Part shown: piece by piece, positions 22,778-58,603 of the stretch
Layout: the number at the start of each line of letters is the position of its first letter
Numbering within the stretch: the first letter of the stretch is position 1
NCBI GenBank assembly: GCA_964453155.1
Contig: CAYVQU010000007.1
Coordinates: 3,036 to 67,035, forward strand
Reading direction: 5' to 3'
DNA from: an uncultured Anaerolineales bacterium
GTDB lineage: Bacteria > Chloroflexota > Anaerolineae > Anaerolineales > UBA11858
DNA length: 64,000 bases
The notes under the pieces: generated by a model
Seen by the model: only the letters and a program-made list of their open reading frames with translations
What the model was told of the DNA's origin: nothing
The model's database searches: none
Program-made: the position numbers and the translations under genes

Positions 22778-25700
22778 ATGACAACTGATCTTATCAGAAC
22801 CCAACTTCAAGAAGGTTGTAAGATCACAACAGCAAATTGGGCCGCACGACTAGAATTGGGGCCAACCGGGTGGCGTTTGAATCAAGCTTTTGGGTTATCG
22901 CAGTCGGGACGAAATTTTGTGGCGGCGATGATTACCGGCGCCTCATTTGCTGCCTGGTTGGCGGGGGGACTAAAAACTGGACGAATTCGGTCGCGAAAAT
23001 TGGTCGATGCCCACGCCTCCCTCCTCAGTTCGCGGGTTTTCATTGTCCCAAATCCGGCCTCCCAAACGGCAGTGTTGATCGGCTGCGATCAATTGAACTC
23101 AACTGCTCGCAGCGTCTTTCGGATAATTGCTAACGGTTTCGTCTCTGCGCCCCCGATATCTCCTGACTGGGAACAAATTATCGCAAAAACGTTGAATGAA
23201 ATCACGGCGGAGATTACGTATGATTTACCGAGTGTGCTGCGGCGAATTTTAGGAGCGCTCGACCATATCCTCCCAACAGATGCGGCCGTAATCGGTCTCC
23301 GTTATGGGAGCCAGTTACAGTTACAGGCAGGGCATGGAATCCTAATTGAAGCTGGTTTGCATCAAATAGAATTAGCAGATATTCCCGCGCTTAATAATTT
23401 GCTGGCGGGGAAAAAAGAACGAATTATCCAGCCACTAACCGCCCAAGAACAATGTCCCTTATTCCCAGAATTTGAGGTTGGGTTCTGGGTGGGGTTGCCC
23501 TTGATTATTGGCACGCGGAGCATTGGCGCAATTTGCTTTTTCGCCGCGGACAAAGCCATTTTTACACCAGAGCGCCTCAAATCAGCTGAACTTATCATTG
23601 CCCATTTGGCCCCGAGTATTGAAAAAGCAGTCGCCTTTGACGAAATGTCGCACTATTTGGAGAAGTTAGCAATTCTCAACGAAATGGCCGCAACCGTAGC
23701 CATTAGCAATGATCCCCGTGAAGTTGCTGAACGAATTATGCGCCGCTTGCGGAAAATATTTAAAACCGAATTGGTCTCCTTGCTCATGGTACATCCGAAT
23801 GGGGAGACATTGTATGAATTTGGCAATCATCAATCCACGAATCAGCAGCTTGAAATTCCGATTGACCAGAGTTTGACGGGTTTTGTGGTCGATACTGGCC
23901 AACCCGCTCGTCTGGCTGATGTTCAAACTGCACCGCGTTATTACGCTCAAAATCCGGGGGTTGTCTCCGAACTGGCGGTTCCCTTGAAATATAGAGAGCG
24001 GGTGATTGGCGTGATGAATCTAGAGTCGCCTCAACCAGATGCTTTTTCGGAACGCGATGAGCAGCTATTGGTGGTCATCGCCAGTCATCTCGCCGGATTT
24101 GTTGAAAATGTACGCCTGAATGATGAAACGCGACGCCGAGTGAAAAACTTGGCCCGCTTGCACCATATAACCGAACAAATTGTGGGGTTAGAAGATATTG
24201 CTATAATTGCTCAGGTTGCCGCTGATACCATTGCTGATCAGTTTGAATATGAGATTGTTACTGTAAATTTGGCTGATGCTGATGGCAAAAATTTGGCGGT
24301 TACTGGTGTTGGAGGAATAGGGGCTACTAAAATCCGCCTGGGTTTTCAGAATGCCGCCAACTTAGGGATTACCGGTAAAGTTTATCAAACGGGGCAAAGT
24401 CGACTCGCCAAAGACACCACGCAAGACCCCGATTATATTGATTTTGCAGGCTGGCAAGCCGGATCTGAGTTATGTGTCCCGTTGCGATCAGGAGAGCAAG
24501 TCATTGGCGTTATCGATGTTGAACGAGTTACTAAAAATGCAATTTCAAAAAATGATCAATTGTTGTTAGAAGCAGTGGCCGGGTTGGTGTCTAGTGTTAT
24601 GACTAGTGCCATGCGGTTCCAGGAATTGCAAGTAAATTATCGCCATTTACAGGCCGCCCGAGAAACTGCCATCGATATCAGTACCGAGTTGGATTTAAAC
24701 ACCGTTCTCCACCGCGCCGCCCACCGGGCCAGGGAGTTAGTCGGAGCCAAAGGGGTTGAGTTAGGTTTTGTAAATCCGGATAAAGAAGTCGTCGAAGTTA
24801 AAGTTTCCGAGAATCCCTGGGGGGATCTCATTCGGGGAGCTCAAATTCCCTTTGGGGCCGGGGTGGCTGGGGTAATGGCTGTTGAAGGAAAATCTATTCG
24901 AGTGGGAAATTACAGTTCTTGGGAACATCAACTGACATTTTCGGGATCACCACCATTTTCGAGTGTAGCCGGTGTGCCCTTGATTTATCAGGGGGCAATC
25001 ATCGGGACGCTCACGGTGAGTAACGATGAGATCGGAATCCATTTTTCATCAGAAGATTTGCTGTTGCTAGAATTATTGGCTCCCCAAATTGCCGCCTCGG
25101 TGAACAATGCGAAACTTTACCAGGAATTACAAGAATCTGTGAAAGCCGAACGCCTAGCAAGTGAACGGTTAATCCAATCGGCCCGTTTAGCCGCAGTGGG
25201 TGAAATGGCTGCCGGGGTTGCTCATGAGCTTAACAATCCACTCACTACCATAACCGGGTTTGTCGAGCTGGCTATGGAAGAAATTCCAGCCGATAGCCTA
25301 TTAAAGGCTGATTTAGCCTTGGTTTTACGCGAATCTAACCGAGCAAAAGAAGTTGTCCGGCGGTTACTTGATTTTTCTCGGCCGGGTGAAGGCTTTCGGG
25401 TCCGGTCGGATATCAATGACATGGTGAGTGAAGTTATTGCCATTATTCAGCATTTAGCGCGCACCACCGGCGTTGATTTACGGATGGAATTATGGAATGA
25501 TTTGCCGTGGTTGCAAGTTGACCGGCATCAAATCAAACAGGTTATCCTAAATTTATTTCAGAATGCTTTGCAGGCCATGCCGAATGGGGGTGTTCTAAAA
25601 ATTCAAACGGCCATGCAATCCCGTGAACAGCGCGATTGGGTTACCGTTAAAGTTGAAGATACCGGGGAAGGAATTTTGCCAGATATTCTGCCGCGGATCT

Positions 25701-25873
25701 TCGAGCCATTTTTTACAACGCGGCCCCCCGGAAAAGGCGCCGGTTTAGGTTTAGCAGTCAGCTATGGCATAATACAGGATCATGGTGGTATGATCGCAGT
25801 CGAGAGTACCCCAAATCATGGGAGCGAATTCACAATTTGGCTGCCGGTGAAATCCAATCGGATGATGATTTAA
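22778..25873 (+). CDS. Sensor histidine kinase with about four GAF domains (GAFx4-HisKA-HATPase)
   Basis: The recurrent GAF C-terminal pattern occurs four times (...[39 protein letters not shown]; ...[34 protein letters not shown]). Then the H-box [13 protein letters not shown], and N/G boxes [11 protein letters not shown] and DTGEGI...FEPFFTT...GAGLGLAVS. Confidence 0.85.
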
Positions 25874-27447
25874 TGACAGAAATAATTGATGCCAAAGTAT
25901 TGATCGTGGATGATGAAATTGGGATCACCCGATTAACGCAGCGCTTGTTAAACCGGGCGGGTTATCATGTTGTGGCCGTTAACCGGCCGCAAAAAGCCCT
26001 CGAGTATTTAGATCAAGAACAAGTTGACTTGATGTTGGTAGATATCCGCATGCCGGAAATGGATGGATTTCAGTTAATGGAAATCGCCCGGGAAACCCAA
26101 CCCGAACTGGCTGTCGTGATTATGACTGGTTATGGCACGGTAGAAACTGCGGTTGAATCACTCCGTAAGGGGGCCGATGGGATGGTGCTCAAGCCATTTA
26201 CGGGGGTCGAGTTAGTACAGAGTATCGAACAAGCCTTACGGGAGAAACGCAGTCAACGCGAAATTCAGCGTTTACGGGTATTGCGCCCGTTATTTGACAT
26301 CACCGAAACCCTTTTCTCTGAAAAAGATCCCCACCGATTGAAGGAATTGATTCTTGAAATTGCCACGAATCACCTGAATTGTTCCAATATTCATTTGTAT
26401 CAACGCATTTCTGGCGAATATGAATTGTTGGTCGGTCCTGTGGAAACCGCCCCGACCAAATTTTCCTCCATTTTCGATCAAGCTTACAAATCAAACGATC
26501 CCATCATTGTTACCGGTGATTCACAAGAAAACGCAAATTATCACGCCTTGTTGAAAGAAATGGAATTAGGGGCTTTTGTTTGTGTCCCCAACACCTCGGA
26601 TCGTGGTTACAGCGTTTTAGCCGTCAGTCGGCATGCATCAGAAGGCAGTTTTAGTGCTGCAGATCAGGAGTTGATATTATTGTTCTCTCGCCAGGTGGCA
26701 GTCGCGATCGAGAATGCCCATTTATATCAAGAACTCCAAGATCATGTTATCCAGGTGGAAAAATCTCAACAAGCATTAATTCAGGCCGAAAAAATGGCCG
26801 CGGTGGGGCGCTTGACAGCCTCGATTGCCCATGAGATTAACAATCCTCTGCAGTCAGTACAAAATTGTTTACACATCATCCAAAATGGAAATCTCTCCGA
26901 GGATGAGTTGGGCACCTATTTGCGGCTAGTTTCCGAAGAACTTGATCGCCTGAAGAGTGCCGCGAAACGGATGTTGGAGTATTATCGACCTGGAGCTTTA
27001 CATCGTTATCCAACCCCAGTATCAGACTTGATCGAAAAAGCGCTATCACTCTTAGAAAAACAGCTTGTACGGCAAAATATAACAATTACCAAAGATTATG
27101 AAGAACGGATTCCCGATGTGATGGTGGTGGCCAATCAATTGCAGCAGGTCATCTTTAATTTGGTGTTAAATGCGATGGAGGCGATGCCATCGGGGGGCGA
27201 TCTGAACATCCAAACCAGGCAAATTGACAATCAAGTTATAATAGGAATTAAGGATTCTGGCCCCGGTATCCCGGAAAGCAATCATAAAAGTATATTTGAA
27301 CCTTTTGTTAGCACAAAAGAAGATGGCTTAGGCTTGGGGCTCACGGTTAGTTATGGAATCATAACTGCTCATGGTGGCACGTTAGAATTGTTACCCCATC
27401 TAGAAGTCGGATCAAAATTTCAAATCACCTTACCGGTAGGAGGGTAA
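25873..27447 (+). CDS. Hybrid response regulator-histidine kinase (REC-GAF-HisKA-HATPase)
   Basis: Start set at ATG 25873, overlapping the upstream stop as TAATG ([15 protein letters not shown]). Receiver motifs LMLVDIRMPEMDG and VIMTGYG..KP. GAF end-helix SRQVAVAIENAHLYQELQ. H-box ASIAHEINNPLQSV. G-box DSGPGI..GLGLGLTVS. Confidence 0.8.
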   Translation: MTEIIDAKVLIVDDEIGITRLTQRLLNRAGYHVVAVNRPQKALEYLDQEQVDLMLVDIRMPEMDGFQLMEIARETQPELAVVIMTGYGTVETAVESLRKGADGMVLKPFTGVELVQSIEQALREKRSQREIQRLRVLRPLFDITETLFSEKDPHRLKELILEIATNHLNCSNIHLYQRISGEYELLVGPVETAPTKFSSIFDQAYKSNDPIIVTGDSQENANYHALLKEMELGAFVCVPNTSDRGYSVLAVSRHASEGSFSAADQELILLFSRQVAVAIENAHLYQELQDHVIQVEKSQQALIQAEKMAAVGRLTASIAHEINNPLQSVQNCLHIIQNGNLSEDELGTYLRLVSEELDRLKSAAKRMLEYYRPGALHRYPTPVSDLIEKALSLLEKQLVRQNITITKDYEERIPDVMVVANQLQQVIFNLVLNAMEAMPSGGDLNIQTRQIDNQVIIGIKDSGPGIPESNHKSIFEPFVSTKEDGLGLGLTVSYGIITAHGGTLELLPHLEVGSKFQITLPVGG

Positions 27448-27449
27448 AA

Positions 27450-28235
27450 ATGACAGCAAAGATTCTCGTTGTTGATGATGAAAAAATTGCCCGAGTGACA
27501 TTGGCTGAGATTTTGCGGATGGAGGGCTATTCGGTTTCAGAAGCCGGTGATGGGCCGGAAGCGTTAGCCGCGGTTAAAGATAATAGCTTTGATTTAGTTT
27601 TACTCGATCTCAAAATGCCTGGTATGGATGGTATTGAGGTCATGCAAAAATTAGCTGAGATCACCCCAGATACGCTGGTTATCATGTTAACCGCCCACGG
27701 TTCAATGGAGTCGGCTATTGAAGCGCTCCGGCAGGGAGCCCATGATTATCTTATCAAACCGTCTTCGCCGCAAGAGATCTTGAGTAGCGTCGCGGCCGGC
27801 CTGGGCCGCCGGGCAGAGAACCAGCATCGCCGAATTCTTTTAGACCAATTAGATACCTCTTTGCAGCAACTACGGGATGTCGAAGGAATTTCCCAATCGG
27901 CCGCAACTGGGCGGCGGATTTTGACTTTTCCTGGTGGCATAATGGTGGACTTAGCTCGACGGGAAATTTGGCGAGGGAATGAAAAAATTAACCTGACCCC
28001 CACGGAGGGGAAACTGTTTCAAGTCCTGATTGAAAATCAGGGGCGGGTGATGACGCACCGCGAGCTGGTTTTTTTGGTGCAGGGCTATGAAATCACCGAT
28101 TGGGAAGCTCCTGAAGTTTTGCGTCCCCTGGTAAGCCGTCTACGTCGAAAATTGGCCACATTCCCTGGTGGGGATACCTGGATAGCCAATGTGCGCGGCA
28201 CTGGTTACGTTTTCGAAGTCCCCAAAGAAGAATGA
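27450..28235 (+). CDS. OmpR-family response regulator (REC + winged-helix DNA-binding domain)
   Basis: KILVVDDE, LVLLDLKMPGMDG, LTAHGS..A..GAHDYLIKP. The C-terminus LTPTEGKLFQVL...VSRLRRKL...IANVRGTGYVF is typical Trans_reg_C. Confidence 0.85.
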   Translation: MTAKILVVDDEKIARVTLAEILRMEGYSVSEAGDGPEALAAVKDNSFDLVLLDLKMPGMDGIEVMQKLAEITPDTLVIMLTAHGSMESAIEALRQGAHDYLIKPSSPQEILSSVAAGLGRRAENQHRRILLDQLDTSLQQLRDVEGISQSAATGRRILTFPGGIMVDLARREIWRGNEKINLTPTEGKLFQVLIENQGRVMTHRELVFLVQGYEITDWEAPEVLRPLVSRLRRKLATFPGGDTWIANVRGTGYVFEVPKEE

Positions 28236-28271: not shown

Positions 28272-29219
28272 TTAATCTCTTGGCTGCCAGGGGAGGTCGC
28301 TGGGAATTGTGGGGTGACTGAGCCAACTTAACCAGCCGCCGGGGTTGCTTTTTACCGGGCGAGTTTTTTCCATCCCCACCAGGATCATCGTGATACTCAA
28401 TAGGCCGGCCCCAATCCATTGGGTCAAGGTCAGGCGTTCTCCTAACCATATTTGGGACATTGCCATGGCAACCAACAATTCACTCAATCCTAAAAATGCA
28501 GTTTGCATTCCCCCGATATTTTTGACACCCATAAATAATGTCAGCCGAGATAAGAAGGTAACTATGGTTAAACCCAACAACGGCCACCACCCTTCTATCG
28601 AAGTAAACAACCCGGTGGTATCTCCAAAAAACAGGACTGGAACCGTAATGGCACTCATGGCCAATAAGGTATAAAGTGTCACTGTGGGCGGGGGCATATC
28701 GAATAATACCCGTTGGTTGATCGGCAGATGTAAGGCATACAGCGCCGACCCAATCAGCATCTGAATCACCCCCACAATATCGATGGATTGATCACTCGTT
28801 TGAACCAATAAAACCACCGCCGGAAGAGCTAATCCAATTCGCAGAATTGTTAACCGACTAGGGGGTTGGCCATCTAAAAATAACCACAAAACCAAAAACA
28901 AGGGATACAACGAATACAGTAATTGGCCGACTCCGGCTCCAATGCGGCCTAATGCGCTGTAATAAAACAAAGACCCGAGTCCATTGATCCAACCTGCCAA
29001 AAGGCAGCCTAATAGTCCTGCCGGGTAGATAAATAAAAATTGCCGCTTAAATATACTGATGATGATCAAAAGCAAGGTGGCGGCCAATAATGTCCGAATG
29101 GCGACGACTGCCAGGGGAGGCATCCCAAACATCATAGCTCGTTTCCCAAAAACAGGTGCCATCCCTAAAAATAACGCGGATGACAGTGCGGCGGAGATCC
29201 CTCGGAGGCGTGAATTCAT
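28272..29219 (-). CDS. DMT-superfamily (EamA-like) transporter
   Basis: 315 aa with 10 hydrophobic spans in a two-repeat organisation (ALSSALFLGMAPVFGKRAM ... FLSRLTLFMGVKNIGGMQTAFLGLSELLV). Confidence 0.7.
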   Translation of the reverse strand: MNSRLRGISAALSSALFLGMAPVFGKRAMMFGMPPLAVVAIRTLLAATLLLIIISIFKRQFLFIYPAGLLGCLLAGWINGLGSLFYYSALGRIGAGVGQLLYSLYPLFLVLWLFLDGQPPSRLTILRIGLALPAVVLLVQTSDQSIDIVGVIQMLIGSALYALHLPINQRVLFDMPPPTVTLYTLLAMSAITVPVLFFGDTTGLFTSIEGWWPLLGLTIVTFLSRLTLFMGVKNIGGMQTAFLGLSELLVAMAMSQIWLGERLTLTQWIGAGLLSITMILVGMEKTRPVKSNPGGWLSWLSHPTIPSDLPWQPRD

Positions 29220-29413: not shown

Positions 29414-31108
29414 TTACTTCAACAGCGTATCCACTTCTTCTAGCAATTCATCATTTAAGAACTCCCCTTTTTGCATCAAAGCGTGAATCCGGCCTTTCAG
29501 ACGACCTTTTTCATCCTCGGTAAGCTCTTGGGCCGTAACCACAATCACGGATATTGATGCGGTCTGTTCATCAGCCTTTAATGCTTCGATAACGCCGAAG
29601 CCATCCATTTCGGGCATCATGAGGTCGAGAATCATCACATCGGGGAAGGCAGTTTGAGCTAATTCAACTGCTTCAATCCCATTTTCGGCTTCATACAAAG
29701 TGTACTCGCCCTGTGATTGCAGGATTCGGCGGATCAAACGACGCGCATCAGGGTTATCATCTACGATGGCTACGCTGGAATAGCGGTCGGGCGTGATCCG
29801 ACTTAAGGCCGATAGCAGCCCCTCTTCGGGTTTTTCTTCCATCGTTTTGGATGAAATGATCATATTCTTGGCCCAACCCTCCCCTAAGATCATTTTCTCA
29901 ACTGGTAGGGTATGCCCCGTTAAATTTACCACAATTACATCATCGGGTTTGACCTGCCCATTACGAACCAGCTTGATTAGACCAGCAAAAGCAACCGCCG
30001 AAGCGGGTTCCATGGAAAGACCTTCCATTTTGGCTAGAACATGGATCGCCCGAAATGCAGCTTCATCCGATACGCTCTCAAAAGTGCCTCCCCCGCCTTT
30101 TAGCATCCGGTCTCGCAAAACAGTGTACGTCCGACCTGGATCGCCGGTTGCGAGAGTAGCAATATTGGTACGCGGAGATTGGACCGGAACTGCCTCTGCA
30201 AGATCATTCTTCCAGGCATGAACCATTGGCTCACAGCCCTCTGATTGAATGGCTGCCACGGCCGGAATTCGGTCAGAGATACCCATCGCTTGGAGTTCTT
30301 CAAACCCCTTGAGTACGCCTACGGGGCCCATCCCGCCGCTGACGGCCTGGATGTAGAGGTCAGGTACTCGCCAGGGGGGGGCATTTTCTCCCTCGGGCGG
30401 TCCGAGGGCTTGGGTGATTTGTTCACTGATTTCAAACGCAATGGTTTTCATGGCTTCTAAGGCCGGAATTGAGCGGACGCCCCGATCTAGATAAGAACCT
30501 TTTTGGCGTTGATTGGCGTATTCCACCGCGACTTTTTTGGCATGATCATACGAGGCGGTAACTTTGATTACCTGGGTCCCATAAATTGCGACTTCGCGCA
30601 TTTTTTCTGCGGGTACTAGGCTGGTCAGAAATGCCCATAATTTGATTCCAGCTCGAGATGTATACGCCGAATATGAAATCGCAACATTCCCCGTCGAGGC
30701 TAATACGGTCTCTGTGACTCCAGCCTCTTTCAAAGATGTGACAGTAATTGCTGCTTGCCGATCTTTGAATGAGCCAGTTGGATTTTGACGTTCATCTTTG
30801 ATATACAGGTTTTTCAACCCCAGCATCATCCCTAGATTGGTTGCTTTTATGAGAGGTGTACCGCCCTCAAACATACTAATTGGGGGGTGGGGACCGGTGA
30901 CGGGCAGTAATTCAAAAAAACGCCAGATATCAAATGGGCGGGAGGGAATACGTTCTAGAATCGATTTACCAATTTCTTCGTAATTGTAACGAGCTTCGCG
31001 CCACCCACTGCCACACTGGGTACAGGTGGTTACTTTGGGCGTATATGGATCTTGATTGCCACAATCTAAACATTCGGCAACTAAATGTGAATACAAAATG
31101 GCCTCCAA
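29414..31108 (-). CDS. Threonine-synthase-like PLP-dependent enzyme with N-terminal Cys4 zinc ribbon and C-terminal receiver (REC) domain
   Basis: CLDCG...CTQCG ribbon. PLP-lysine motif NPTGSFKDRQAAI. ASTGNVAISYSAY and AVSGGMGPVG (phosphate-binding loop). The last 120 aa, SVAIVDDNPDARRL..VMILDLMMPEMDG..VIVVTAQ..., form a canonical receiver. TTG start at 31108; a TTG 12 nt downstream preceded by GGAGG is equally possible. Confidence 0.8.
   Translation of the reverse strand: MEAILYSHLVAECLDCGNQDPYTPKVTTCTQCGSGWREARYNYEEIGKSILERIPSRPFDIWRFFELLPVTGPHPPISMFEGGTPLIKATNLGMMLGLKNLYIKDERQNPTGSFKDRQAAITVTSLKEAGVTETVLASTGNVAISYSAYTSRAGIKLWAFLTSLVPAEKMREVAIYGTQVIKVTASYDHAKKVAVEYANQRQKGSYLDRGVRSIPALEAMKTIAFEISEQITQALGPPEGENAPPWRVPDLYIQAVSGGMGPVGVLKGFEELQAMGISDRIPAVAAIQSEGCEPMVHAWKNDLAEAVPVQSPRTNIATLATGDPGRTYTVLRDRMLKGGGGTFESVSDEAAFRAIHVLAKMEGLSMEPASAVAFAGLIKLVRNGQVKPDDVIVVNLTGHTLPVEKMILGEGWAKNMIISSKTMEEKPEEGLLSALSRITPDRYSSVAIVDDNPDARRLIRRILQSQGEYTLYEAENGIEAVELAQTAFPDVMILDLMMPEMDGFGVIEALKADEQTASISVIVVTAQELTEDEKGRLKGRIHALMQKGEFLNDELLEEVDTLLK
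29417..29776 (-). other. Receiver (REC) domain portion of the threonine-synthase-like fusion
   Basis: DD pair (IVDDNPD), phospho-acceptor context ILDLMMPEMDG, T (VVTAQ) and K (LMQKG) positions are all present. Confidence 0.8.
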
Positions 31109-31155: not shown

Positions 31156-31199
31156 GAGAACGCAGGGTTGTAGGAATTCGATTATTACCCTGCGTTCTC
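31156..31199 (-). repeat. Perfect 13-bp hairpin (18-nt loop) between the giant kinase gene and the threonine-synthase-like gene
   Basis: GAGAACGCAGGGT pairs with ACCCTGCGTTCTC. No U-tract follows on the minus strand, so terminator function is uncertain. Confidence 0.6.
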
Positions 31200-31240: not shown

Positions 31241-34200
31241 TTATTGGTATTCCTTGATCCGATTCAAAGATGCAACGAAATCATCGCCCAAAATTGGTTT
31301 CACCAAATAATCGGTGGCTCCGAGATCAAAACCCTTATCGATGTCCTCTAGAATGCTGCAGATGATCACCGGGATATTTCGGGTTTGCGGGTCAGCTTGA
31401 AGCTCTTCCAGTAGTTGCCAACCATCATGATCTGGGAGCATAATGTCGAGGGTGATTGCAAAGGGCTGAATTTGACGAGCGAACTCCATCGTTTTGCTTG
31501 GATCGGTAAGGGGTACGATATCGTACTCAGAACCACTCAAATACCGTTCGTAGAGATGAATGACCTGCATATCGTCGTCGATAGCCAGCACAGTGTTGCC
31601 GCCATCGACATCGGGAGGCAGAAGGGCTCGATCATCCAAGGGGAGCGTGAAGAAGAAATCACTCCCTTTGCCTTCTTCACTCACTAAACCAATTTCACCG
31701 CCATGTAATTCAACCAATAGGCTCGTAATAGAGAGACCCAACCCAGTCCCACCAGTTGCCCGGGTGGGTGAACCATCAACCTGAACGAATGGTTCGAAGA
31801 GTTTATCTTGATCTGCCGCCCCGATACCCAGCCCGGTATCTTTCACACTTATGTAAAGTTCGGGCAGACCACTTTCATTGGTTTGCTGCCGGGCTGTCAT
31901 TGTGATGCTGCCTTCGTCCGTAAATTTGGCGGCATTTGAAATCAGGTTGAGTAATATCTGACGAACTCTGGTTGAGTCAGCATTGACTATGGGTAGGTCC
32001 TCCTCGATAGCCGCTATGAGTTCGACGGGTTTATCCTTGATCAAGCCGCGCGCCGTAGACATTACGCTATTGATAATATCGGTAACGATTACATCTTCGA
32101 AGGCCAATTCCATCTTCCCGGCATCGATCTTGGAGATATCCAAAATGTCGTTAATCATTTTGAGCAGGTGCTGGCCAGCGTTATAAATCGCTCCCAGGTC
32201 TTGCTGCTGGAGGTCCGTCACTGGGCCGTCGATGCCTTTCATGATCACGCGCGAGAACCCAATGATGGAGTTCAGCGGAGTCCGCAGCTCATGGGACATG
32301 TTCGCCAGGAACTGGGATTTGAGTTGATCGAGCTCACGCAACTGCTCTGCGGTTTCAAATTGTTCCTCGTAAAGTCGGGCATTTTCGAGTGAGATGGCGG
32401 CTTGATTAGCCAGGGTCATCAACAGATTGATTTCATCGTCTGAAAATGAATATTCATTGTGCCTGGTTTCGATTTCGATAACACCGATGGTTTGACCTTT
32501 GACTGCTAACGGCAAAACCACCATCGTACCCACCTTATTCTCTGTCATGTAGGCAATTTCGGCCGGGTCTGCATCCTCGTCACCGATGTTCACCACCAAA
32601 ACTTCCTGTGTTTCTAATACTTTAGCTGTTGCTGGATATTCTGATAACGCAAAGTTCCAAATGCTAGGGTCATCATCCAGTCCTTGATGACCTTCAGTAA
32701 GGCCTAAACTGGAAATTGTAATCATCGAGTTTGGATCGATGGAATCTAGTAAGGCGATTGAACAACTCGCTTCATCCGGAATTAGATTAGCAATTTGCAG
32801 AGAGATAACATTCGCTACCTCCCGGGTTTCCAAAGGTGCCCTGGAGAGGTTCTGACTGGCATCGGATAGAGTGGTTAAGTCCTGAACGCGTCGTTCGGTT
32901 TCCGCAATCGCCTCCTGAACGGCTTGATAGGCCCGGGCATTGGCGATTGCGACCGAAATCTGATCAGCCAGGGTTTGGAGCACGGTAATATCATCATCTT
33001 GGAAAGTATCGATTTCAGTAGCTTGAACATCCAAAGCCCCAATAACGCGATTACCAATTTTTAGCGGGATCGCTAATTCGGCCGCAGTATCTGGTAAGAG
33101 TGGATGAGGTTGGTGGGTTTTATCCTGACTGACATCGTTAATGACCAGGTATTCGCCACTGGCTGTCACTGCCCCGATTATTGATTTAGACCCCACAGCT
33201 AGGCCATGGCCGGTTTCCATCATTTGTACCCCGGCTTCTCCGGTAGCTGCTTGGATCACTGCATTTTGACCAGTCTCATCCAGTAAGAAAATTGATGAGT
33301 GGTAAAAATCAAACCGGTCTCTGACGGAATTTACACTACGGATAAGGAGTTCTTCCTGTGAAAGGGTGGCAGATGTATCCCGGGCAATTTCGGCTGCAGT
33401 TTCCAATTGACCGGCTTTGCGGATACTGTCTTCCAATGACCGGATGTTTTGGATTGCCACTGCTGCCTGTCCGACCAGACTCATCATTTGGCGAATGTCG
33501 TTTTCGGCGAAATCTTGTTTTATCTCGTAAATTGCGATGATATGACCAAACCATTGCCCACCGGCAACCAGAGGGGCAAAGACCAGGCTATCGGCCTGGT
33601 AATGGTCCACATAGACCTGACGTCCAACCTCGTCTAATCTTGGATCATTGGCAATATCGGTGATAATGACTGCCTCGCCGGGGTTGAGTAAGTCTTCGGC
33701 CGTTGACCAAGCACTGAGCGGGTATCTTTGGTTTTTTTCCCGAGGACCTTCGGTTAATTTATTCCAGCGCGCAATCGGTATTAGCCATTCCGGTTGGGTA
33801 TCTGTATCCCAGACTTGATCAAATAGACTGACTGAAACACTTACCACCCCTTCTCCTAATATGGAATGATTCCGTAAAACGGAAAGGATTTCAGCATAAG
33901 ACTGCACCGTATTCAACTCAGAACTAGCCTGATAAAGGGCTGCCATTTCGTTTAGGGCCGTTTCAACTTGATCAAATAGCCGAGAGTTCTGAATTGCGAT
34001 GGCGGCCTGATTGGCAAGAGTCGTAGCCATGCGGATGTCTTCGTTAGCAAATGTTCCCTTAGGGGTTTGGCGATTCAAAGAGATAACCCCAATTACTCCC
34101 TCTGGCCCTACCATGGGGACGGTTGCGTTAGCTGCGATGCCGGCGGCCTTAAAATTCTCGCGGGCGTGTTCTTGCAACCGGGGATCATCGGCGAAGATGT

Positions 34201-37200
34201 TCGACGGTTGACGGGTACGAATAACTTGCTGTGTCAGAGGATAGCTTTCAAGCGGGATGCTCTCACCGATCGTTGACTCACCGGCAGTAAGTTCGGGGTA
34301 TGAACCCGACCGGATCATGTTTTCGCCTTGGAGCATGAACAAACTGACCGAGTCAGCTTCAGCAGCTTGGGCCACACTATTGATGAGGGTTTTGCTGACA
34401 TCTTCAAAACTCAGCGATTCACTCAATTCAGAGGTTGTCGATTGAATGATTTGCAGGTCTTCGAGTTGTTGCTGGGTTTGGGAGAATAAGCGGGAGTTCT
34501 CGATGGCGGAAGCTGCTTGACCGATAATTGTTTCAGCCAATCGTATCTCTTCTTCAGTGAATCGGCGACCAGCCTCGAGAATATCGAGGCCCACGGTGCC
34601 GATCACGCGACCAGCACTGATCAATGGCATTATTGCCAGGGACACAACTCCATGAGATTTCATCACTTCATGGATCGGTGCCGTGATGGGATCATTTTGG
34701 GCGTCATCGACAACCAGGGATTGCCCAGTTTCAATTACTTTTTGCGAAGATAGATTGCCTTCCACGGGTAGCTCAACGCCTACCGCTGAGGGGCGTTCTG
34801 GATTGGGTGAATATGCCGCGATAATTGTGAAAGTGGTCCGGGCGTTATTAAGCAAGGCAATGCCCGTTTGAATATTCAAGGCCCGGCCTAATTCCGAAGC
34901 CACAATATCCAAACTTACTGACAGGTCCAAAGAACTGGCCACTTGTGAAACGATGTTGTTAATCAAGGCTAATTCTTCACTGCGTTGTTGGGTCTGGTCG
35001 AAGAACTCGACGTTCTGCAGCGAGATCGCAGTTTGACTGGCGATAGAGGCCAGAAGATCCCTTTGACGGGTGTCATAAAGGCGGGGCGTAGTAACACTTT
35101 GAACCGTAATAACGCCAACAACCTTTTCACCAACCAACATAGGAACCCCCAACCAACAGAGTGGCGGTCCACTGTCGCCCAGCGGTACAAATTCAGCCCC
35201 CAAATTTTCCATGTGGGTAAGGACATCATCTTCGAGCAATAAGGCTTCACCATTCTTGAGAATATATCCGGTTAAGCCCTTTCCTGCTGGTTGGGTAAAA
35301 GTTTCGGCGGGTTCACCGTTAAAAACGTTGAACTCGACAGAAATTTCGGTCTGTTCATCATCAAAAGTTGCAATGAAAAAATTAGTTGTATCGAGTAATT
35401 GGGAGGTGTACCGATAGACAGTTTCAAAAACTTGTTCCCGTTCCAAAATTGTGGTCAATTCCCGTCCCATATCATTGAGAATTGAAAGATCATCGGTTTG
35501 TTTTTGAGTCGCCTGGAATAAACGGGCGGTCTGGATCGCGATCGCCGATTGGCGGGCAATTGAGATTAATAAATCTTGATGATGTTCGTTGAAAACATGG
35601 GGCGTATCCGCATTTTGAGTGGCGATGACACCCAAAACATCATCACCAATAATCAAAGGTACCCCCAACCAAGATTGAGCTGGGGCACCGATAATAATTT
35701 TTTCAAGACCTAATTCTTTGATAACCTCTTCAATATTTTCTGAGATGAGCAGTGGTTTTTTCGTATCGATTACGTGTTGGGTTAATCCCCGCCGTTTTTT
35801 CATGGTGGGGATATTGGATAATTCACCTTGTTCATAAACTAAGGGGAAGGAGACAGTATCATTTCGTTGGTTATAAAGCGAAATAAAGAAATAAGTCGTA
35901 TCCATCAACCGAGATGAGTACTCGTGGATGGTGCCCATGATTTCATCCAAATCGAACAGTGTGCTGAGCACGCGACTCATCTCATTGAGAACGGCCAATT
36001 CTGCAGCCTGATCTTGGGTTTGCTCAAAGAGGTTGGCATTTTCAATTGCGACCCCAATTTGCTGACCAACTGCCGAAAGCAGCGAGATATCGTTGCTTTC
36101 GGGCGACAATTTCTGGGTTGAAAATGTACACAACGTCCCTAGAATCTCCCCTTTGGCTTCGAGCGGTACCCCCTGATAGGATTGATACCCTAAGTTTATG
36201 GGGCCAGAGACTTCTATATCTGTAATTTTTGACAGATCATCGAAGTAAATCGGTTCTTTCCCCAGGTAAACCATTTCACATAAAGAACCTTCAAGTCCGT
36301 TTTCTTGAATACTCAATAACATCGCTTCCGGTAATTCATGTGCCAGGAGATCAAGTTTTCCGGTATATGCATTTGCGATTGTAATGAGCCCGATTTCTGA
36401 ATCGATCGTATTGAGTACCAGGTCCAATACTTCCTTTAGGGTCGTTTGTAATTCGAGAGAACTACTCGCCACATTAGTGATGCTCAATAGTGATTCGGTT
36501 TCTGATAAAGCCTCTTGAACTTGGTCAAGAAGCCGGCGGTTTTCTAGGTTGGAACCTATAACGGCAACCAATTGTTGTAGTAGATTTTCATCGCGGGATC
36601 CATACGCATTGGGTTTCAGACTACCAATATTCAGAGTCCCCACAATTTGGGTACCAAAGGCGACCGGCGCGACCATGAACGATCTCACCGCGCCTAAGGC
36701 TTCTTGGTTCGTATCAGGAACAACAATTGTTCTGTTTTGTTGGACCACGCTTTCCAGGGTTGAATCGGCCAGTGGAACGATATCACCAATGACGGTTGTG
36801 CCGGTTTCCCCCCGGATTGCAACCACTTCAATGGCATCTTGAGTGGGCACCAACATCGCCAAGGTTATCCGATCGGCAGTGAAAATTTGCTCAGATTTTG
36901 TGGTAATAAAGTTGTACGCCTCAGGAAAACTTTCAGCCCGGCTAAGTTCTTCACTGAGGTCGTTCAAGAGGGCCAGCCGGCGCACCAATTCTTCTGTTTC
37001 AGAAAGTGCGGCCTGGGTTTGTGAAAACAGATTCGAGTTTTGAATGGCGATCGCACTTTGGCTGGCGATGGCCACTAATAATTCCAGGTCCTGATCTGAA
37101 AAATGATGTGAGGCTTTGTTTTGGACACAAATAATACCTAAAGCCCGGTCTCCAATTGCCAGGGGAACGCCCAACCAACTTTGGGACATTTCACCGACTA

Positions 37201-39859: not shown

Positions 39860-40607
39860 ATTGTGTCAACTCCTGCGCTAGAGTGGTATATTGCTGCGCA
39901 CTCCGGCTGCTGGGGAGATAGTGGGTAATAGGTTGGCCAGCGATGGCACATTCACGCAATTTGCTGTCGGTTTGGATCATCGTATCGAAAACGGCCGCAT
40001 CGAAAGTTGTTTTGAGTTGTTGACTCAGTGTATTATGCGAACCAATGCGGATATCAAGCATTGTTATGAGAATCCGATATTTCAAACCTGGATTTTCAGA
40101 TTTTCGAATGGATTGGATCATGCTCATCATATTGCGCAGTGCATAGGCTGAGAAATATTCTGCCTGGGTTGGGATAATTAACAAATCTGCCGCGGTGATG
40201 GCATTCAGCGTAACAACCCCTAGGGATGGCGGGCAATCCAAGATGATCAAGTCATAATGGGAAATGGTTTCGAGCGCAGTTTTTAAGATTGATTTGTAAT
40301 CTTGTCGGATCGGTAAAAAGCGCTCGGTTAATCCCATTTCAGAATTTGAGGGGATCAAATCTAAACCAGGGATGGCGGTCTCACGAGAAACGCTGACCGG
40401 TTTTGCCGAGTAAAGCATCACATCCGCGATTGACCGCCGGACTTTATGGGGGGCAATCCCCATTGCCAAAGATAAATTGGCTTGCGGGTCTAAATCAACC
40501 AGCAAAACTTCGTATCCTTTCTCAACGAAAGCCCCGCCAATGGAAACCGCGGTAGTGGTTTTTGCCACTCCACCTTTTTCATTTGAAACTGCAATAACGT
40601 TCGTCAT
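39825..40607 (-). CDS. ParA/Soj/MinD-family P-loop ATPase (orphan; no ParB nearby)
   Basis: Deviant Walker A VSNEKGGVAKTTT, LLVDLDPQANLS, Walker B LIILDCPPSLG. 260 aa. Its 3' end overlaps the giant kinase start by 35 nt, and there is an 8-nt gap to the upstream gene. Confidence 0.85.
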   Translation of the reverse strand: MTNVIAVSNEKGGVAKTTTAVSIGGAFVEKGYEVLLVDLDPQANLSLAMGIAPHKVRRSIADVMLYSAKPVSVSRETAIPGLDLIPSNSEMGLTERFLPIRQDYKSILKTALETISHYDLIILDCPPSLGVVTLNAITAADLLIIPTQAEYFSAYALRNMMSMIQSIRKSENPGLKYRILITMLDIRIGSHNTLSQQLKTTFDAAVFDTMIQTDSKLRECAIAGQPITHYLPSSRSAQQYTTLAQELTQYVKTERITQPA

Positions 40608-40615: not shown

Positions 40616-43600
40616 TTAAGAATTTGATTCTTTCGATTGGACCACGACTTGGGCGCGCTGGGCTTGTAAGGCCTCCCGGAGTTCGCTAGCTGCAGTGTGC
40701 AGCATCGCCTGAGGATCAGTGGTTGCTCGAATTTTGGTTGTAATTTCAGTTACCAGGCGCTCGCGGGCGGCCCGCCGTTGGGTGGTATCGAGCAAGCGCA
40801 AGGTTTCGGCTGCCAGACCAAACTGCTCGCTGACAGCCTCAGCAATCGCAATATCATCGGGTGACCAAGAGTCTTTGTCGGGAGGTAAATTGAAGCCCAA
40901 AGCCCCAATGGGTTCATCGCGAAGTAGCACGGGGACGGCCAAGATTGTATTGGTGCCATTCTCGTCTGCTAAAACGATGGAACGCTTTTCTTGCATGGCG
41001 ACTTGTACTTCAGGTAGTAACTCATTTCCTAATGGAATGATATCGGCATCCGTACTTTGATATCCGGTTTTTGTCTGATTTTGTGTGAATTCAGACCAGG
41101 CCTGGGTCAAGTAACGCCGTTGCGTGCGTTCTAACTCAACCAGCGCAGTTTGGGTTTGTTCGAACAGACGAGTATTTTGAATCGCGCTGGCAATCTGGTT
41201 GGCCATCGTAGTCAGACTGGCAGCATCTTCGGGGGTGAATGCATGAGCTGCCGTGCTCTGAATAGTGAGGGCCCCAAATGTAGATCCTCGGCTGGTCAGC
41301 GGTAAGGCCATCTCTGAGCGGGTGTCTGGTAAGTGGGGGTTGCGTAAGTGTATCGGTGCTTGCTCCACTTCAAGCTGAACATCAGCTTGACCGCTCTCAA
41401 TACACCGACCGATCATGGATCCGCCACCGACCTCTAATTTCCAGTTTTGAGCCAACATTTGCTGCCCCGCCTCGCCGGTACCGGCCTGGAGGTCGGCCCA
41501 TTGCTGGCTCTCATCTACCAGGAATAAACCCACATAGTAGAGATTGAACCGATCGCGGATGACGTCCACAACACGAGGGAGCAAAACATCAACATCCAAG
41601 ATGGATGAGATTGCACCCGCAACTTCTGCCGCGGCACTTAATTGGGCCGACCGTCGTTCATTCAAAGCTAGGCTGGCTTGCATTTCATCAAACAATCGGG
41701 TATTCATCAATGCCGCGGAAATCTGGTTGGCAACTGAAGTTGCTAGACCCAGATCCATATTTGTAAAGTCAGGACTTTCGAGGCGTTTGATGAGCGTCAT
41801 TGTGCCGAAGGTTTCGCGCTGAGAATGTAGCGGCGCGATGATAATTGAACCAGCTCCGAAATCTTCCCGCCTTTTTTGTGCCTCCGGGCTTTCACGGGGA
41901 TCGGGGATCATTGTTTTTGGAGAGAAAATGGGTTCCAGATCGCGCAATGCCAACCCACTTAACCCCTCCCATAACTCTCCATAACTGGCTCGATCAAATT
42001 CTTCTGGGGCGTGGGGGCCAGCCATGCTCACCAACTCAACGGTTTCAGTAGCGGTATCGATGATGTTGATTACTACGATATCGGCCTGAGTCCCATCAGC
42101 AGTCCCTTCTACGGCTGCCTGGACCGCCTCAGCCACGCTGGTAACATCTCTTAGCCGACGGCTGGTAATATTGAGGATATTAGCGCGATTGAGGGCCGCA
42201 CTGGTGGTGACCGAGAGTTTTAGCCCATGAAGACTACTGCTGATATATTCGGCCAGATTGAGATATTGGCTGCTAATTTGGGGGCTATATTCAAAGATCA
42301 CATATCCGTGACTGGTTGTTTGGTGGTAAATAGGGCGGATGACCAATGAAACGGACTGCGTTTCTGGGAGAAGTTGATCAGGAATGATCTGACTTTTGGG
42401 GAGCAGCGTGTCGGTTAAAACCCCGGTGGAAGTAAAAAGGATGGGGATTTGATACTGGTTCGCGGCAATTTCGTTATCGGGTTGTAAAATCAACCCAAAA
42501 CCAGGGACGCCTAAAAATTGCAGCCCGTTGGCCATGATTTCGTAAAATGTAGGAAAATCCGCGGCAGTATTGAGGGCTTGTCCCCATTCACGAATATTGG
42601 TTGTGAATTGTTCGGTTGAATTTTGGCGCTGCTTCTGACCTCGAAGGGCGATATCACTTAACAGGGTTTGGGATTGAAATAGCCAGGTTTCGATTTGGGC
42701 ACTTAACGTCAACTCCTTGAAATCAGGCGGTAATAGGAATTGCCGCAGAAATCTCAGCATGTTTTGCCAGTGTTGAAGTTGGTCGGTTTGAGTTTGAAGT
42801 TGTGTGAATATCCGATTAACTGACCGGATAAATTTGGTTTCATCCTGGGTTTTGATGACGGCCGCAAAAGCAGCGATCAGGTCTGCCGTCGCCCAGGTTT
42901 CATTTGTTGGAATCTCTGCTTTCTCGTTGAGCATGGCGGAAAGCTTTTCTTTTTGTGGGGCTAAGGCGGTTACATCCAACCGGATTTCGGGTGGCGCGCC
43001 CTCGGTAGTTTGTGGCTGGATGGGCAAACATCCACAAGACTCCCTGGTCACCAGAGCGGTAGCCAGCCGGACGATTGGTTCAACTTCAATCCCGTTAATT
43101 TGTTTGAGCAGCAGTTCAACGGCCATCTGACCTTGTCGATGAATGGGTTGGTGGACAGTTGTGAGGGGCGGGGCTGAAAAATTCCCGTCTTCAATGTTAT
43201 CGAAGCCGACGACTGCGATGTCTTGGGGAACATGCAGATCAAAAGATGGCAATGCGGCCATGATCCCAATTGCCATCGTGTCATCGACACATACAATGGC
43301 ATCAACTTTGGCCTGACGATCTGTAAGCAAAGTTGTCACCGCCCCAGTAGGATCAGTATCAAAATCAGGGGGAACCACTAAGTTGGGATCGAATTCGATC
43401 TCATGATCGTTCAGGGCGGCAAGATAAGCCTGGTATCGTTCTTCGGCCTCCGAATTCCCGGCATATTGCTGAATGAAAGCAATATTTCGATAGCCATGAT
43501 CGTCAATTAAGTGAGATACAGCCTGATACATCCCCGAATGGTTATCAATTAATAAACTGGGAATATTTTCCAGCCCTAAAGCAATACTTACAGTGGGTAG

Positions 43601-45654: not shown

Positions 45655-45656
45655 GG

Positions 45657-48527: not shown

Positions 48528-48531
48528 GAAG

Positions 48532-50244: not shown

Positions 50245-50320
50245 AAATATTCAAATCACCTGGATAGGGTTGACTTTACGATCTGCTGATCGCGCGAACA
50301 AACTCATTGGAAGCAGTGAA

Positions 50321-50348
50321 TTTCTAGAGAAGAAAGGCTAAATGTCAA
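50321..50348 (-). promoter_or_regulatory. Weak candidate sigma-70-type promoter for the six-gene unit starting at 50244
   Basis: The minus strand reads TTGACA (50348..50343), a 16-nt spacer, then TAGAAA (50326..50321), inside the 110-bp gap upstream of the 48532..50244 gene. By-eye match only. Confidence 0.25.
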
Positions 50349-50354
50349 CACGGC

Positions 50355-51842: not shown

Positions 51843-51871
51843 TTACAACTCCAGGATTAACACCATTCGAT

Positions 51872-53014: not shown

Positions 53015-53043
53015 GCTGGTCTCCTTTTTATTGAATCGGTCGA

Positions 53044-53409
53044 TTATTCACTTTGAAACCATTTTATCGCTTCAGTTTCATCTTGAAATAAGCGTAAATC
53101 TTTTGTGCCGGTGGCCTTTATTACAAATCCAGCTAATACTCGAATATAACGACTGGCTCCGATAATCGCAGATTTACCAGATCGTGGGTCTACATCTTGG
53201 AATAGGGTTCCAAAAACTCTTCTTACGGAGGCTGAGGCTTTACCAACTTCACTGGCTTCTATGATGGTATGGAGGGGAGATTCTGCGGAGGCCTTTTCTA
53301 AATAAGTCCGGTATGCTTCGATATACGCCAGGACTTCGGCCTCATCAATATCACCCCGGAATACGATCCGGAGGATGCCGTCTTCACCAAGATCAAATGC
53401 AAAACTCAT
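53044..53409 (-). CDS. Small STAS/SpoIIAA-like protein (121 aa), tentative
   Basis: GILRIVFRGDIDEAEVLAYIEAY...KSAIIGASRYIRVLAGFVIKATGTKDLRLFQDETEAIKWF resembles the SpoIIAA-like/STAS (DUF-type) small-domain layout. No enzymatic motifs. Confidence 0.4.
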   Translation of the reverse strand: MSFAFDLGEDGILRIVFRGDIDEAEVLAYIEAYRTYLEKASAESPLHTIIEASEVGKASASVRRVFGTLFQDVDPRSGKSAIIGASRYIRVLAGFVIKATGTKDLRLFQDETEAIKWFQSE

Positions 53410-55334: not shown

Positions 55335-55361
55335 GAAAATCTCTCAAAAAAACCAAAAAAC

Positions 55362-58593: not shown

Positions 58594-58603
58594 ACGGTTT
58601 TTA

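Follow-up and report, generated by a model that had tools for sequence, protein, structure and literature searches.

ThrC-REC, encoded on the minus strand of the window (the whole stretch of 64,000 nucleotides that was analysed), is, as judged from its sequence, a response regulator whose enzymatic output is of a new kind. Response regulators nearly always end in DNA-binding or second-messenger domains; in ThrC-REC the receiver is joined to a PLP enzyme core related to the threonine synthases (ThrC). This arrangement suggests a sensing system which directly switches a metabolic step and, if this is true, environmental sensing would be wired straight to one metabolic reaction, without a transcription step. 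The fusion, together with a kinase and a transporter, has been long retained across one bacterial class. A literature search yielded no paper describing a PALP-receiver fusion. A phosphorylation-switchable PLP enzyme, should ThrC-REC be one, would also be a useful tool.

Gene and Domain Architecture

The gene and its parts are the following (residues in the numbering of the 564-aa ORF, which is used throughout):

29414..31096, minus strand: coding sequence of the ThrC-like PLP enzyme plus receiver, 560 aa, likely TTG start at 31096
29414..31108, minus strand: longest ORF of ThrC-REC, 564 aa, TTG start, stop codon at 29414-29416
31013..31072, minus strand: N-terminal Cys4 zinc ribbon (C13, C16, C29 and C32)
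29915..30880, minus strand: fold-type-II PLP (PALP) core, residues 77-398, Lys115 codon at 30764-30766
29774..29914, minus strand: inter-domain tether, residues 399-445
29417..29773, minus strand: C-terminal receiver, residues 446-564, codon of the phospho-acceptor Asp495 at 29624-29626

A GGAGG sequence is found 5 nt 5' of the TTG at 31096, and in 87 of 128 homologues the start falls at query residue 5. On both grounds the true start is probably this TTG, which gives a protein of 560 aa and likely a spacer of 144 bp to the kinase gene. The preliminary description had placed the gene 132 bp downstream of the kinase on the same strand, and this distance is right for the longest ORF.

The three parts that had been proposed (Cys4 ribbon, PLP core of fold type II, and complete receiver at the C-terminus) were borne out by Pfam and by residue conservation. 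PALP was identified at residues 77-398 (E 1.9e-59) and Response_reg (PF00072) at residues 446-547 (E 3.3e-19; 69.5 bits, the threshold being 30.2). Each of the four ribbon cysteines is retained in 123-126 of the 128 homologues, and they are also retained across the wider Zn-ribbon ThrC-like superfamily. The ribbon region appears in the structure model as short strands with a pLDDT of 79-97.

The receiver is complete, as had been described, since the DD pair, the phospho-acceptor and the T and K positions are each 97-100% conserved in the 128 homologues (D450 97%, D451 100%, D495 100%, T525 98%, K547 100%). Its best PDB match is a response regulator (3dge_C family, 122 aa). The first helix of receivers is generally the kinase-docking surface, and nine of its ten positions in ThrC-REC (residues 455-464) are 92-100% conserved. 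Within the tether, residues 412-427 are predicted to be disordered and are followed by the nearly invariant motif PEEGLLSAL (427-435). Variants with a ThrC-REC-REC architecture also exist (L022, L024, P0123 and P0126). Their second receiver scored 77-100 bits to the receiver of the enzyme and 38-54 to that of the kinase, so that it arose by duplication, and its origin as a relocated kinase receiver was rejected.

Genomic Neighborhood and Distribution

The following features surround the gene in the window:

31241..39859, minus strand: hybrid histidine kinase of 2872 aa (PAS, 14 GAF, HisKA, HATPase_c, REC), kinase core at about residues 2480-2750, candidate phospho-donor
28272..29219, minus strand: EamA/DMT-family transporter, conserved downstream partner
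39825..40607, minus strand: ParA/MinD-like ATPase, its end overlapping the kinase start; found on the upstream side of the kinase gene in 17 of 25 genomes
40616..63974, minus strand: at least 11 sensor-GAF genes without kinase or cyclase output, accompanied by genes of the FIST and SpoIIAA-like types
22778..28235, plus strand: divergent second two-component set (GAFx3 kinase, REC-GAF kinase and OmpR-type regulator), syntenic in many genomes
25837..27447, plus strand: REC-GAF kinase of this set, a receiver protein, syntenic in many genomes
27450..28235, plus strand: OmpR-type regulator of this set, a receiver protein, syntenic in many genomes
31156..31199, minus strand: hairpin of the kinase-enzyme spacer (perfect 13-bp stem, 18-nt loop, U-tract lacking)

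The order kinase, ThrC-REC, EamA transporter is retained in about 20 of 25 species-level genomes. About 20 of the 25 have a GAF kinase gene as immediate upstream neighbour in the same orientation, most often separated by 14-75 bp, and EamA is directly downstream in 19. The second subfamily of the fusion, which is 50% diverged, has the same triad with a different kinase architecture, the histidine kinase being either upstream or downstream of the fusion gene. The retention of the triad in these genomes and in the second subfamily supports the earlier proposal that ThrC-REC is the output of the kinase, and ThrC-REC has both an intact receiver and an adjacent kinase, as a response regulator should. 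However, the kinase is a hybrid with a receiver of its own, and no HPt gene was found either in the two large intergenic gaps of the cluster (53-56 kb), whose only small gene is SpoIIAA-like, or among the window ORFs scanned; direct transfer from the kinase to ThrC-REC is therefore not assured. Nor is ThrC-REC the sole standalone receiver protein of the block, as had been stated, because the OmpR-type regulator and the REC-GAF kinase are encoded on the opposite strand, at a distance of about 1.2 to 3.5 kb.

The run of sensor-GAF genes without output likely provides inputs to the kinase, and many upstream sensors bear dCache or periplasmic-binding domains. ThrC-REC offers a tractable way into these very large and little-explored GAF-based signalling clusters of the Anaerolineae, abundant members of the communities of wastewater and sediments.

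Searches for the same fusion in other genomes, as proposed in the preliminary description, retrieved it in more than 200 distinct protein clusters (90% identity) belonging to two subfamilies. All named clusters are from Anaerolineae/Chloroflexota. The sequences came from assemblies of NCBI, ENA, JGI and Logan, and some of them lie on contigs 1.3-3.7 Mb long. Near-complete genomes bearing the fusion include the 3.68-Mb contig ERZ25072999:ctg321994, CAWIOV010000001.1 and JABTUK010000001.1. This class-wide distribution and the EamA partner are additions to what had been described before.

The 13-bp inverted repeat reported in the spacer is exact (arms 31156-31168 and 31187-31199), and the RNA fold of the spacer beats 200 of 200 shuffles (z = -2.9). 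No conservation was seen: the sequence is absent in relatives 84% identical, whose 206-bp spacer holds a different hairpin, and the hairpin of the window is lineage-specific. Within the window it is not repeated. A weak terminator-like site, with a 6-bp stem followed by GTTTTTAGAA, was located past the kinase stop codon (31233-31214); sites of this kind are no more numerous in the region than expected from shuffled sequences.

The PLP Core, a Probable Diverged ThrC Paralogue

The SFKDRQ motif of the core is invariant, and its lysine, K115, which aligns with K61 of Thermus ThrC, is kept in all 128 homologues. SFKDRQ, STGN, EPAS and the Gly-rich PLP loop do not vary across 94-128 members of both subfamilies, which points to purifying selection on catalysis. 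At the structural level, the top 22 Foldseek matches were ThrCs, save 9k3c at rank 16, and the nearest solved folds are those of class-II ThrCs, with TM-scores of 0.83-0.85 and 26-32% identity.

The distal pocket, on the other hand, has been remodelled (V142, Y187, R209-G210-x-R212, A216 and S257-G-G-M-G261). Both fusion subfamilies have, as fixed changes with respect to Thermus ThrC, T88V, N154R, S155G, R160A/S and GNAGN to SGG[LM]G. Residues T88, N154, S155, R160 and N188 of Thermus ThrC are presumably the ligands of the O-phosphohomoserine phosphate in the 1V7C complex. With V, R, G, A/S and G at these positions, ThrC-REC lacks the presumed phosphate site of the threonine synthases. These ligands are retained by canonical ThrCs irrespective of a Zn ribbon, and the more distant PRK08197-type ThrCs likewise retain the Arg160 equivalent. 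In the fusion proteins, positions 209 and 212 carry conserved basic residues (Arg/Lys).

Family models gave a concordant placement. ThrC-REC missed every NCBIfam ThrC equivalog cut-off: its best-scoring model was PRK08197 (230.1, the cut-off being 303), TIGR00260 gave 150.5 against 167.1, and the remaining ThrC models scored lower still. Deeper fusion members reached 244-271 against the PRK08197 cut-off of 303. Of two unfused members of the clade, P0128 is narrowly above two ThrC cut-offs (305.5 vs. 303 and 180.9 vs. 167.1) and P0281 is located on a cyanobacterial contig. In a distance tree the representatives with a fused receiver all fall into a single clade, nested in a 15-member group which is the only one, among the nested clades around the query, without the Arg160 equivalent. 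Cysteate synthase, considered in the preliminary description as another possible placement, was rejected (TIGR03844, 100.6 against a cut-off of 324.9; CapA2 9K3C, fold rank 16); in the PDB sequence comparison it gave an E of 1.2e-9, that of the ThrCs being about 1e-41. Serine/threonine dehydratases (IlvA, TdcB, SDH) were also rejected, with at most 57 bits against cut-offs of at least 320 and fold ranks from 23 onward.

Taken at the level of residues and family scores, the PLP core is probably a diverged ThrC paralogue and is not a canonical threonine synthase. The earlier assignment to a ThrC-like enzyme thus stands as to the fold and the lysine motif, and the PLP-binding motifs align with those of active enzymes; the presumed phosphate-binding residues are replaced, and the specific name of threonine synthase goes too far for a protein below all cut-offs. 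The same name, given by NCBI/PGAP to the second subfamily, is probably over-specific. Besides correcting it, these data define a clade of ThrC-like proteins whose substrate pocket has been rebuilt.

Proposed Mechanism and Alternative Explanations

The reading that we prefer, to which we give an even chance, is that ThrC-REC is a response regulator whose output is an enzyme, the diverged ThrC paralogue, switched by the adjacent kinase. According to it, the GAF-rich histidine kinase would phosphorylate Asp495 of the C-terminal receiver, a role that in some lineages may be taken by a small REC-HisKA-HATPase kinase. The receiver, held on a flexible tether through the PEEGLLSAL motif, would then alter its packing or dimerisation, and this would switch the activity of the PLP core in one direction or the other; class-II ThrC relatives are dimeric. 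The core seems to keep everything required for PLP chemistry, and its distal pocket to have been rebuilt, with two basic residues replacing the Asn-Ser...Arg phosphate site. Since the PLP motifs are kept and the phosphate site is rebuilt around these residues, a beta- or gamma-elimination or replacement might be expected on an anionic amino acid, which would be handled differently from O-phosphohomoserine in ThrC. The two conserved basic residues could nonetheless bind a phosphate, that of O-phosphohomoserine included. The EamA transporter encoded by the neighbouring gene would move the product or the substrate.

Alternatively, ThrC-REC might be a true threonine synthase converting O-phosphohomoserine to threonine, possibly with a housekeeping role, the receiver tuning its output and EamA exporting threonine/homoserine in the manner of RhtA. 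RhtA is a member of the transporter superfamily of EamA. In addition, the top sequence and fold matches are threonine synthases, PGAP uses this name for the second subfamily, P0128 marginally exceeds the cut-offs, the fusion is widespread in the class, and the Arg/Lys residues at 209 and 212 could stand in for Arg160. We consider this explanation rather unlikely, though, because the query is under every ThrC cut-off and all five presumed phosphate ligands are replaced, although canonical lineages with or without a Zn ribbon keep them. Moreover, the gene belongs to a signalling cluster, neither hom nor thrB was found adjacent to it in any locus examined, and the EamA protein only matched the generic 2A78 model, with 49.6 bits against a cut-off of 230. 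As for P0281, it is cyanobacterial, and cyanobacteria would generally also own a canonical ThrC, to judge from a study of Microcystis (PMC12172450). A canonical thrC was sought in about 1.5 Mb of the window and fetched loci, where only the fusion gene itself was found, and cluster look-ups of Zn-ribbon ThrCs with the canonical signature returned no Chloroflexi names.

The loss of the presumed phosphate-binding Arg could also indicate a phosphorylation-switched deaminase or dehydratase whose substrate would be an unphosphorylated amino acid (threonine or serine, for example); the amino-acid- or sugar-type sensors upstream would then start catabolism, and EamA would be an importer of the substrate. 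The SGGMG loop resembles the GGGG[LM]-type PLP-phosphate loops typical of dehydratases and racemases, and the dCache or periplasmic-binding domains of many upstream sensors are consistent with it. Threonine deamination is possible in ThrC-family enzymes (PMC12172450). Nevertheless, the low dehydratase scores, the position of dehydratases well under the ThrCs in the fold-search ranking, and the two conserved basic pocket residues, which suggest an anionic side chain, make this explanation improbable. Most characterised EamA-family members are, besides, exporters.

Equally doubtful is an extension in which the triad would be a signal-controlled synthase and exporter of a diffusible amino-acid-derived compound in filamentous Anaerolineae, driven in this window by a receptor array of a new kind: the sensor-GAF proteins would join the 14-GAF kinase by GAF-GAF contacts and the ParA-like ATPase would position the assembly. 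The model for this last role is ParC/PpfA, which position chemotaxis arrays. In this window, a dozen sensor-GAF proteins without output would take part.

Less probable still is that the PLP domain is a ligand sensor and not an enzyme, so that the protein, as a phosphate sink or connector, would adjust the kinase to the amino-acid status. A receiver is already part of the kinase, and the Zn-ribbon ThrC-like PadR fusions without the catalytic lysine show that sensors can arise from this fold; unlike these, however, more than 120 receiver-fused members show no change in the catalytic lysine or in any of the PLP-contact motifs, and the conserved pairing with a transporter fits more easily a metabolite that is made or consumed. 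Finally, an assembly or frameshift artefact joining a thrC-like gene to a separate receiver gene, a concern raised in the preliminary description, was ruled out for practical purposes by the same architecture in the more than 200 independent clusters of the four sources and on contigs of up to 3.7 Mb, by the conserved linker motif, and by a continuous and confident structure model.

Comparison with Known Systems

The fold of ThrC-REC is that of class-II ThrCs (Thermus 1UIM/1V7C, Aquifex 2ZSJ, M. tuberculosis 2D1F and B. subtilis 6CGQ), with which the Schiff-base lysine, the STGN carboxylate loop, EPAS and the C-terminal TGH align. It differs from them in the extra N-terminal Zn ribbon and C-terminal receiver, and in the changes T88V, F134Y, N154R, S155G, R160A/S, GNAGN to SGGMG and KDRG to KDRQ. 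The N-terminal Cys4 ribbon is shared with the PRK08197 Zn-ribbon ThrCs (e.g., that of Clostridium algifaecis, locus L027). However, true members of this family score about 600 bits, compared with 230 for ThrC-REC, keep the Arg160 equivalent, have FKARG, lack a receiver and are well outside the fusion clade in the tree.

Among signalling proteins, the CheB methylesterase, the PleD/WspR diguanylate cyclases and the HD-GYP protein RpfG likewise combine a phosphorylatable receiver and a catalytic domain, with a kinase adjacent. Their receivers are N-terminal and their outputs are signalling or second-messenger enzymes, whereas ThrC-REC has a C-terminal receiver, a PLP amino-acid-metabolism enzyme as output and a transporter as conserved third partner.

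Plant threonine synthase (2C2B), which was among our fold-search matches, is activated by S-adenosylmethionine bound at the dimer interface through an N-terminal extension. It is a precedent for an allosterically switched ThrC, although one regulated by a metabolite and not by a phosphorylated receiver as proposed for ThrC-REC. In the Rv2531c type of fold-type-I PLP decarboxylases, an attached CheY-fold domain has been implicated in a change of oligomeric state (PMC12329521). The PLP fold is another one, and in the part of that source available to us a partner kinase or phosphorylation is not described; as far as this comparison goes, ThrC-REC differs in having all phosphorylation residues invariant and a kinase adjacent. 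The 'unique-lineage' ThrC of Microcystis aeruginosa has both threonine synthase and deaminase activities and is thus a case of a diverged ThrC with altered or dual chemistry (PMC12172450). It is a non-canonical paralogue with an extra N-terminal segment and without receiver (PMC12172450); its primer-derived termini had no match among the window and homologue proteins compared.

The same Zn-ribbon ThrC-like scaffold bears other modules at the same C-terminal position, namely a LeuA allosteric domain (proteins of about 615 aa), presumed to respond to a small-molecule ligand, or PadR (about 470-500 aa), in which the catalytic lysine is often lost and the protein has a sensor-like look. Within this superfamily, only the ThrC-REC clade is tied to two-component signalling.

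Domain organization and distribution of the fused enzyme

The ORF encoding the receiver-fused enzyme (ThrC-REC) is preceded on its strand, at a distance of 132 bp, by a 2872-aa ORF and followed by a transporter gene:

29414-31108, minus strand: ThrC-REC, 564 aa, TTG start
31241-39859, minus strand: histidine kinase, 2872 aa
28272-29219, minus strand: EamA transporter

Pfam analysis placed a PALP domain at residues 77-398 of the enzyme (E 1.9e-59) and a receiver at residues 446-547 (E 3.3e-19). The Cys4 ribbon, PLP lysine motif, complete receiver and distance to the kinase reported in the preliminary description were all recovered. Among 128 homologues, each of the four ribbon cysteines is kept in 123-126, K115 of the SFKDRQ motif in all, and D450, D451, D495, T525 and K547 of the receiver signature in 97-100%. 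Since most homologues begin at residue 5 of the query, where a TTG codon has GGAGG 5 nt upstream, the true start is probably 31096, giving a protein of 560 aa. In an AlphaFold2 model computed from 94 family sequences (mean pLDDT 88.8, pTM 0.74), ribbon, PLP core and receiver are predicted with confidence; the tether at residues 412-427 is disordered, and the nearly invariant PEEGLLSAL forms a short helix immediately before the receiver.

The PALP-receiver fusion is genuine and lineage-bound. A search of 5.8 billion proteins yielded at least 120 distinct 90%-identity clusters with PALP and Response_reg domains, about 560 aa long and 65-85% identical to the query, whose organism names were Anaerolineales or Chloroflexota without exception. 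In a scan of species-representative genomes, the fusion gene was intact at 25 loci, often accompanied by a GAF kinase, and fragmented at one (L026); all come from Anaerolineae or Chloroflexota MAGs, some on contigs longer than 2 Mb. A further search, with an unfused relative as its starting point, revealed another large fusion subfamily, present in Aggregatilineales and other Anaerolineae, with a length of about 548 aa and about 50% identity to the window enzyme; NCBI names it threonine synthase. In databases the fusion proteins bear no other labels than "threonine synthase" and "pyridoxal-phosphate dependent enzyme". Two receivers are present in a few members. These ThrC-REC-REC variants (L022, L024, P0123 and P0126; 699-719 aa) have a duplicated receiver, and at L022 and L024 the gene adjoins a kinase devoid of its own receiver, with extra single-domain receiver genes downstream.

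Relationship with threonine synthases

The nearest solved sequences (E about 1e-41) and folds (TM 0.83-0.85) are class-II threonine synthases, and the family shares with canonical ThrC, without variation, the Schiff-base lysine, STGN loop and EPAS. To this extent the ThrC-like core first described was borne out. However, the enzyme scored under every NCBIfam ThrC equivalog cut-off (PRK08197, 230 vs. 303; TIGR00260, 150.5 vs. 167.1), and column-by-column comparison with four solved ThrCs revealed that T88V, N154R, S155G, R160A/S (Thermus numbering) and GNAGN to SGG[LM]G are substituted and then fixed in the fusion family, together with F134Y and KDRG to KDRQ. The first five positions are those which we take to hold the phosphate of O-phosphohomoserine in the Thermus substrate-analogue complex. 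Hence the enzyme core belongs to the ThrC superfamily but falls short of threonine synthase proper by these two sequence criteria. An anion-binding site probably persists, differently built, because D-[RK]-G-x-[RK]-S occurs in the remodelled loop of both fusion subfamilies. Cysteate synthase gave far weaker sequence, model and fold matches than ThrC, and dehydratases also matched far more weakly. In addition, C292, part of a G-C-x-P-M motif (G291, C292, P294, M295), is invariant in the two fusion subfamilies and also in the unfused relatives, where canonical ThrCs have G-A-A-P.

The Zn-ribbon ThrC-like superfamily proved very diverse when 1.84 billion representatives were searched exhaustively; the canonical signature (NS-xNPxR, GNAGN) occurs with and without the ribbon, in proteins strongly passing TIGR00260. 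The phylogenetic placement proposed earlier was carried out as a distance tree, in which all receiver-fused representatives and one unfused cyanobacterial protein form a single clade within this superfamily. With three further unfused proteins it makes up a 15-member group, the only one of the nested clades around the query without the Arg160 equivalent; the next sister clades retain Arg, and PRK08197-type ThrCs lie well outside.

An unfused fusion-clade member with the same pocket signature, P0281, probably lost its receiver or was transferred without it:

L081 (cyanobacterial contig), 5239-6507: P0281, 422 aa

Its gene is two genes away from a phycobilisome-linker gene and convergent with that of a GAF-PAS sensor protein. 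At the C-terminus, some other ThrC-like proteins with a Zn ribbon have a LeuA allosteric/dimerisation domain (P0154, P0169, P0180 and others, about 615 aa) or a PadR DNA-binding domain (P0170, P0185 and P0187, about 470-500 aa). In the three PadR fusions checked, L, I or R stands in place of the catalytic lysine, which suggests that they are PLP-fold ligand sensors for transcription factors.

Gene neighbourhood and proposed signalling

The window kinase comprises PAS, 14 GAF, HisKA, HATPase_c and REC domains. A GAF-containing histidine kinase (760-2872 aa, core 55-67% identical to that of the window) is encoded directly upstream of the enzyme, on the same strand, in about 20 of the 25 genomes, usually at 14-75 bp; the EamA gene directly follows the enzyme in 19 and a ParA-like ATPase gene lies 5' of the kinase in 17. 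The second subfamily has the same triad with other kinases, such as a 2441-aa dCache-GAF kinase upstream of the enzyme at L083, whereas at L084-L086 an orthologous small REC-HisKA-HATPase kinase stands between enzyme and EamA. L020 has both the giant and the small kinase. The small kinase, which the window lacks, occupies this place between enzyme and EamA at L020, L025, L084, L085 and L086, with a length of 415-466 aa and 40-57% identity between loci. What is conserved is thus a triad of receiver-fused enzyme, kinase and DMT transporter, EamA being a partner additional to the kinase-enzyme pair originally proposed. For the EamA protein, the sole model match was the generic one for carboxylate/amino-acid/amine transporters, at a score far under the cut-off, and neither hom nor thrB adjoined the enzyme gene at any locus examined.

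This conserved order supports the earlier proposal that the enzyme is the output of the kinase. Within the operon of the kinase it is the possible acceptor. However, it was also taken for the only standalone receiver protein of the block, which does not hold, since a second, divergent two-component set, likewise syntenic in many genomes, is found just beyond EamA:

22778-28235, plus strand: GAFx3 kinase, REC-GAF kinase and OmpR-type regulator

The enzyme is therefore not the sole possible acceptor, and this set may provide the same system with a transcriptional arm. The window kinase is itself a hybrid with its own receiver, and no HPt gene was found in the two large intergenic gaps of the cluster or among the window ORFs scanned.

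Response regulators with enzymatic outputs, such as CheB, PleD and RpfG, are well known, the plant ThrC is activated by S-adenosylmethionine, and the PLP core is dimeric in class-II ThrC relatives. In our proposal, the neighbouring kinase would phosphorylate Asp495, and the phosphorylated receiver would repack or dimerise, switching the PLP core. The substrate of this core would be an anionic amino acid undergoing elimination or replacement, and EamA would carry either that substrate or the product. The main rival is a true threonine synthase tuned by phosphorylation and paired with a threonine exporter; the kinship of the core with class-II enzymes favours it and the replacement of the presumed phosphate-holding residues argues against it. 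A phosphorylation-switched deaminase is a lesser candidate, as threonine deamination is within reach of ThrC relatives (PMC12172450). A sensor role, which the lysine-less PadR fusions show to be accessible to this fold, is opposed by the invariant catalytic lysine of ThrC-REC. Receiver-like domains are present in fold-type-I PLP decarboxylases (PMC12329521), whereas ThrC-REC combines fold type II with a phosphorylatable receiver, an arrangement for which no description was found in the literature searched.

The 13-bp hairpin noted between kinase and enzyme is exact, and none of 200 shuffles reached the stability of the spacer RNA (z = -2.9). That specific hairpin is not conserved, however: 84%-identical relatives have a 206-bp spacer with a different one. 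The window spacer (132-144 bp) exceeds the gaps of most genomes, and in this lineage a stem-loop 3' of the kinase gene may determine how much regulator is made relative to kinase.

Other features of the locus

Upstream of the kinase, the following genes were identified:

39825-40607, minus strand: ParA/MinD-like ATPase, 3' end overlapping the kinase start by 35 bp
40616-63974, minus strand: sensor-GAF run (the 23 kb upstream), at least 11 consecutive genes ending in GAF, without kinase, cyclase or DNA-binding output
51872-53014, minus strand: FIST-domain protein, inside the run
53044-53409, minus strand: SpoIIAA/STAS-like protein, 121 aa, inside the run

The sensors are a LacI-type periplasmic-binding domain, MASE11, dCache plus HAMP, or HAMP alone. 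Synteny of all these genes with the kinase extends to other genomes, and many Anaerolineales have homologues of the run in synteny with the multi-GAF kinase and the ParA-like gene. The ATPase recalls ParC/PpfA, which position chemotaxis arrays. Because the GAF domains of the L083 kinase are 42-47% identical to those of three window sensor proteins, the run may be a receptor-array-like input layer coupled to the kinase by GAF-GAF contacts.

A second EamA-family transporter (16543-17403, plus strand), divergent from a MarR-type regulator (15858-16400, minus strand), had the aromatic amino acid exporter YddG and the O-acetylserine/cysteine exporter as weak best matches. Finally, positions 1-12000 have a G+C content of 38-42%, vs. 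46-53% in the remainder of the window, and encode a Polysacc_synt flippase-like protein, several group-1 glycosyltransferases, three SAM methyltransferases and two ORFs without Pfam match; this region may be a horizontally acquired surface-glycan island.
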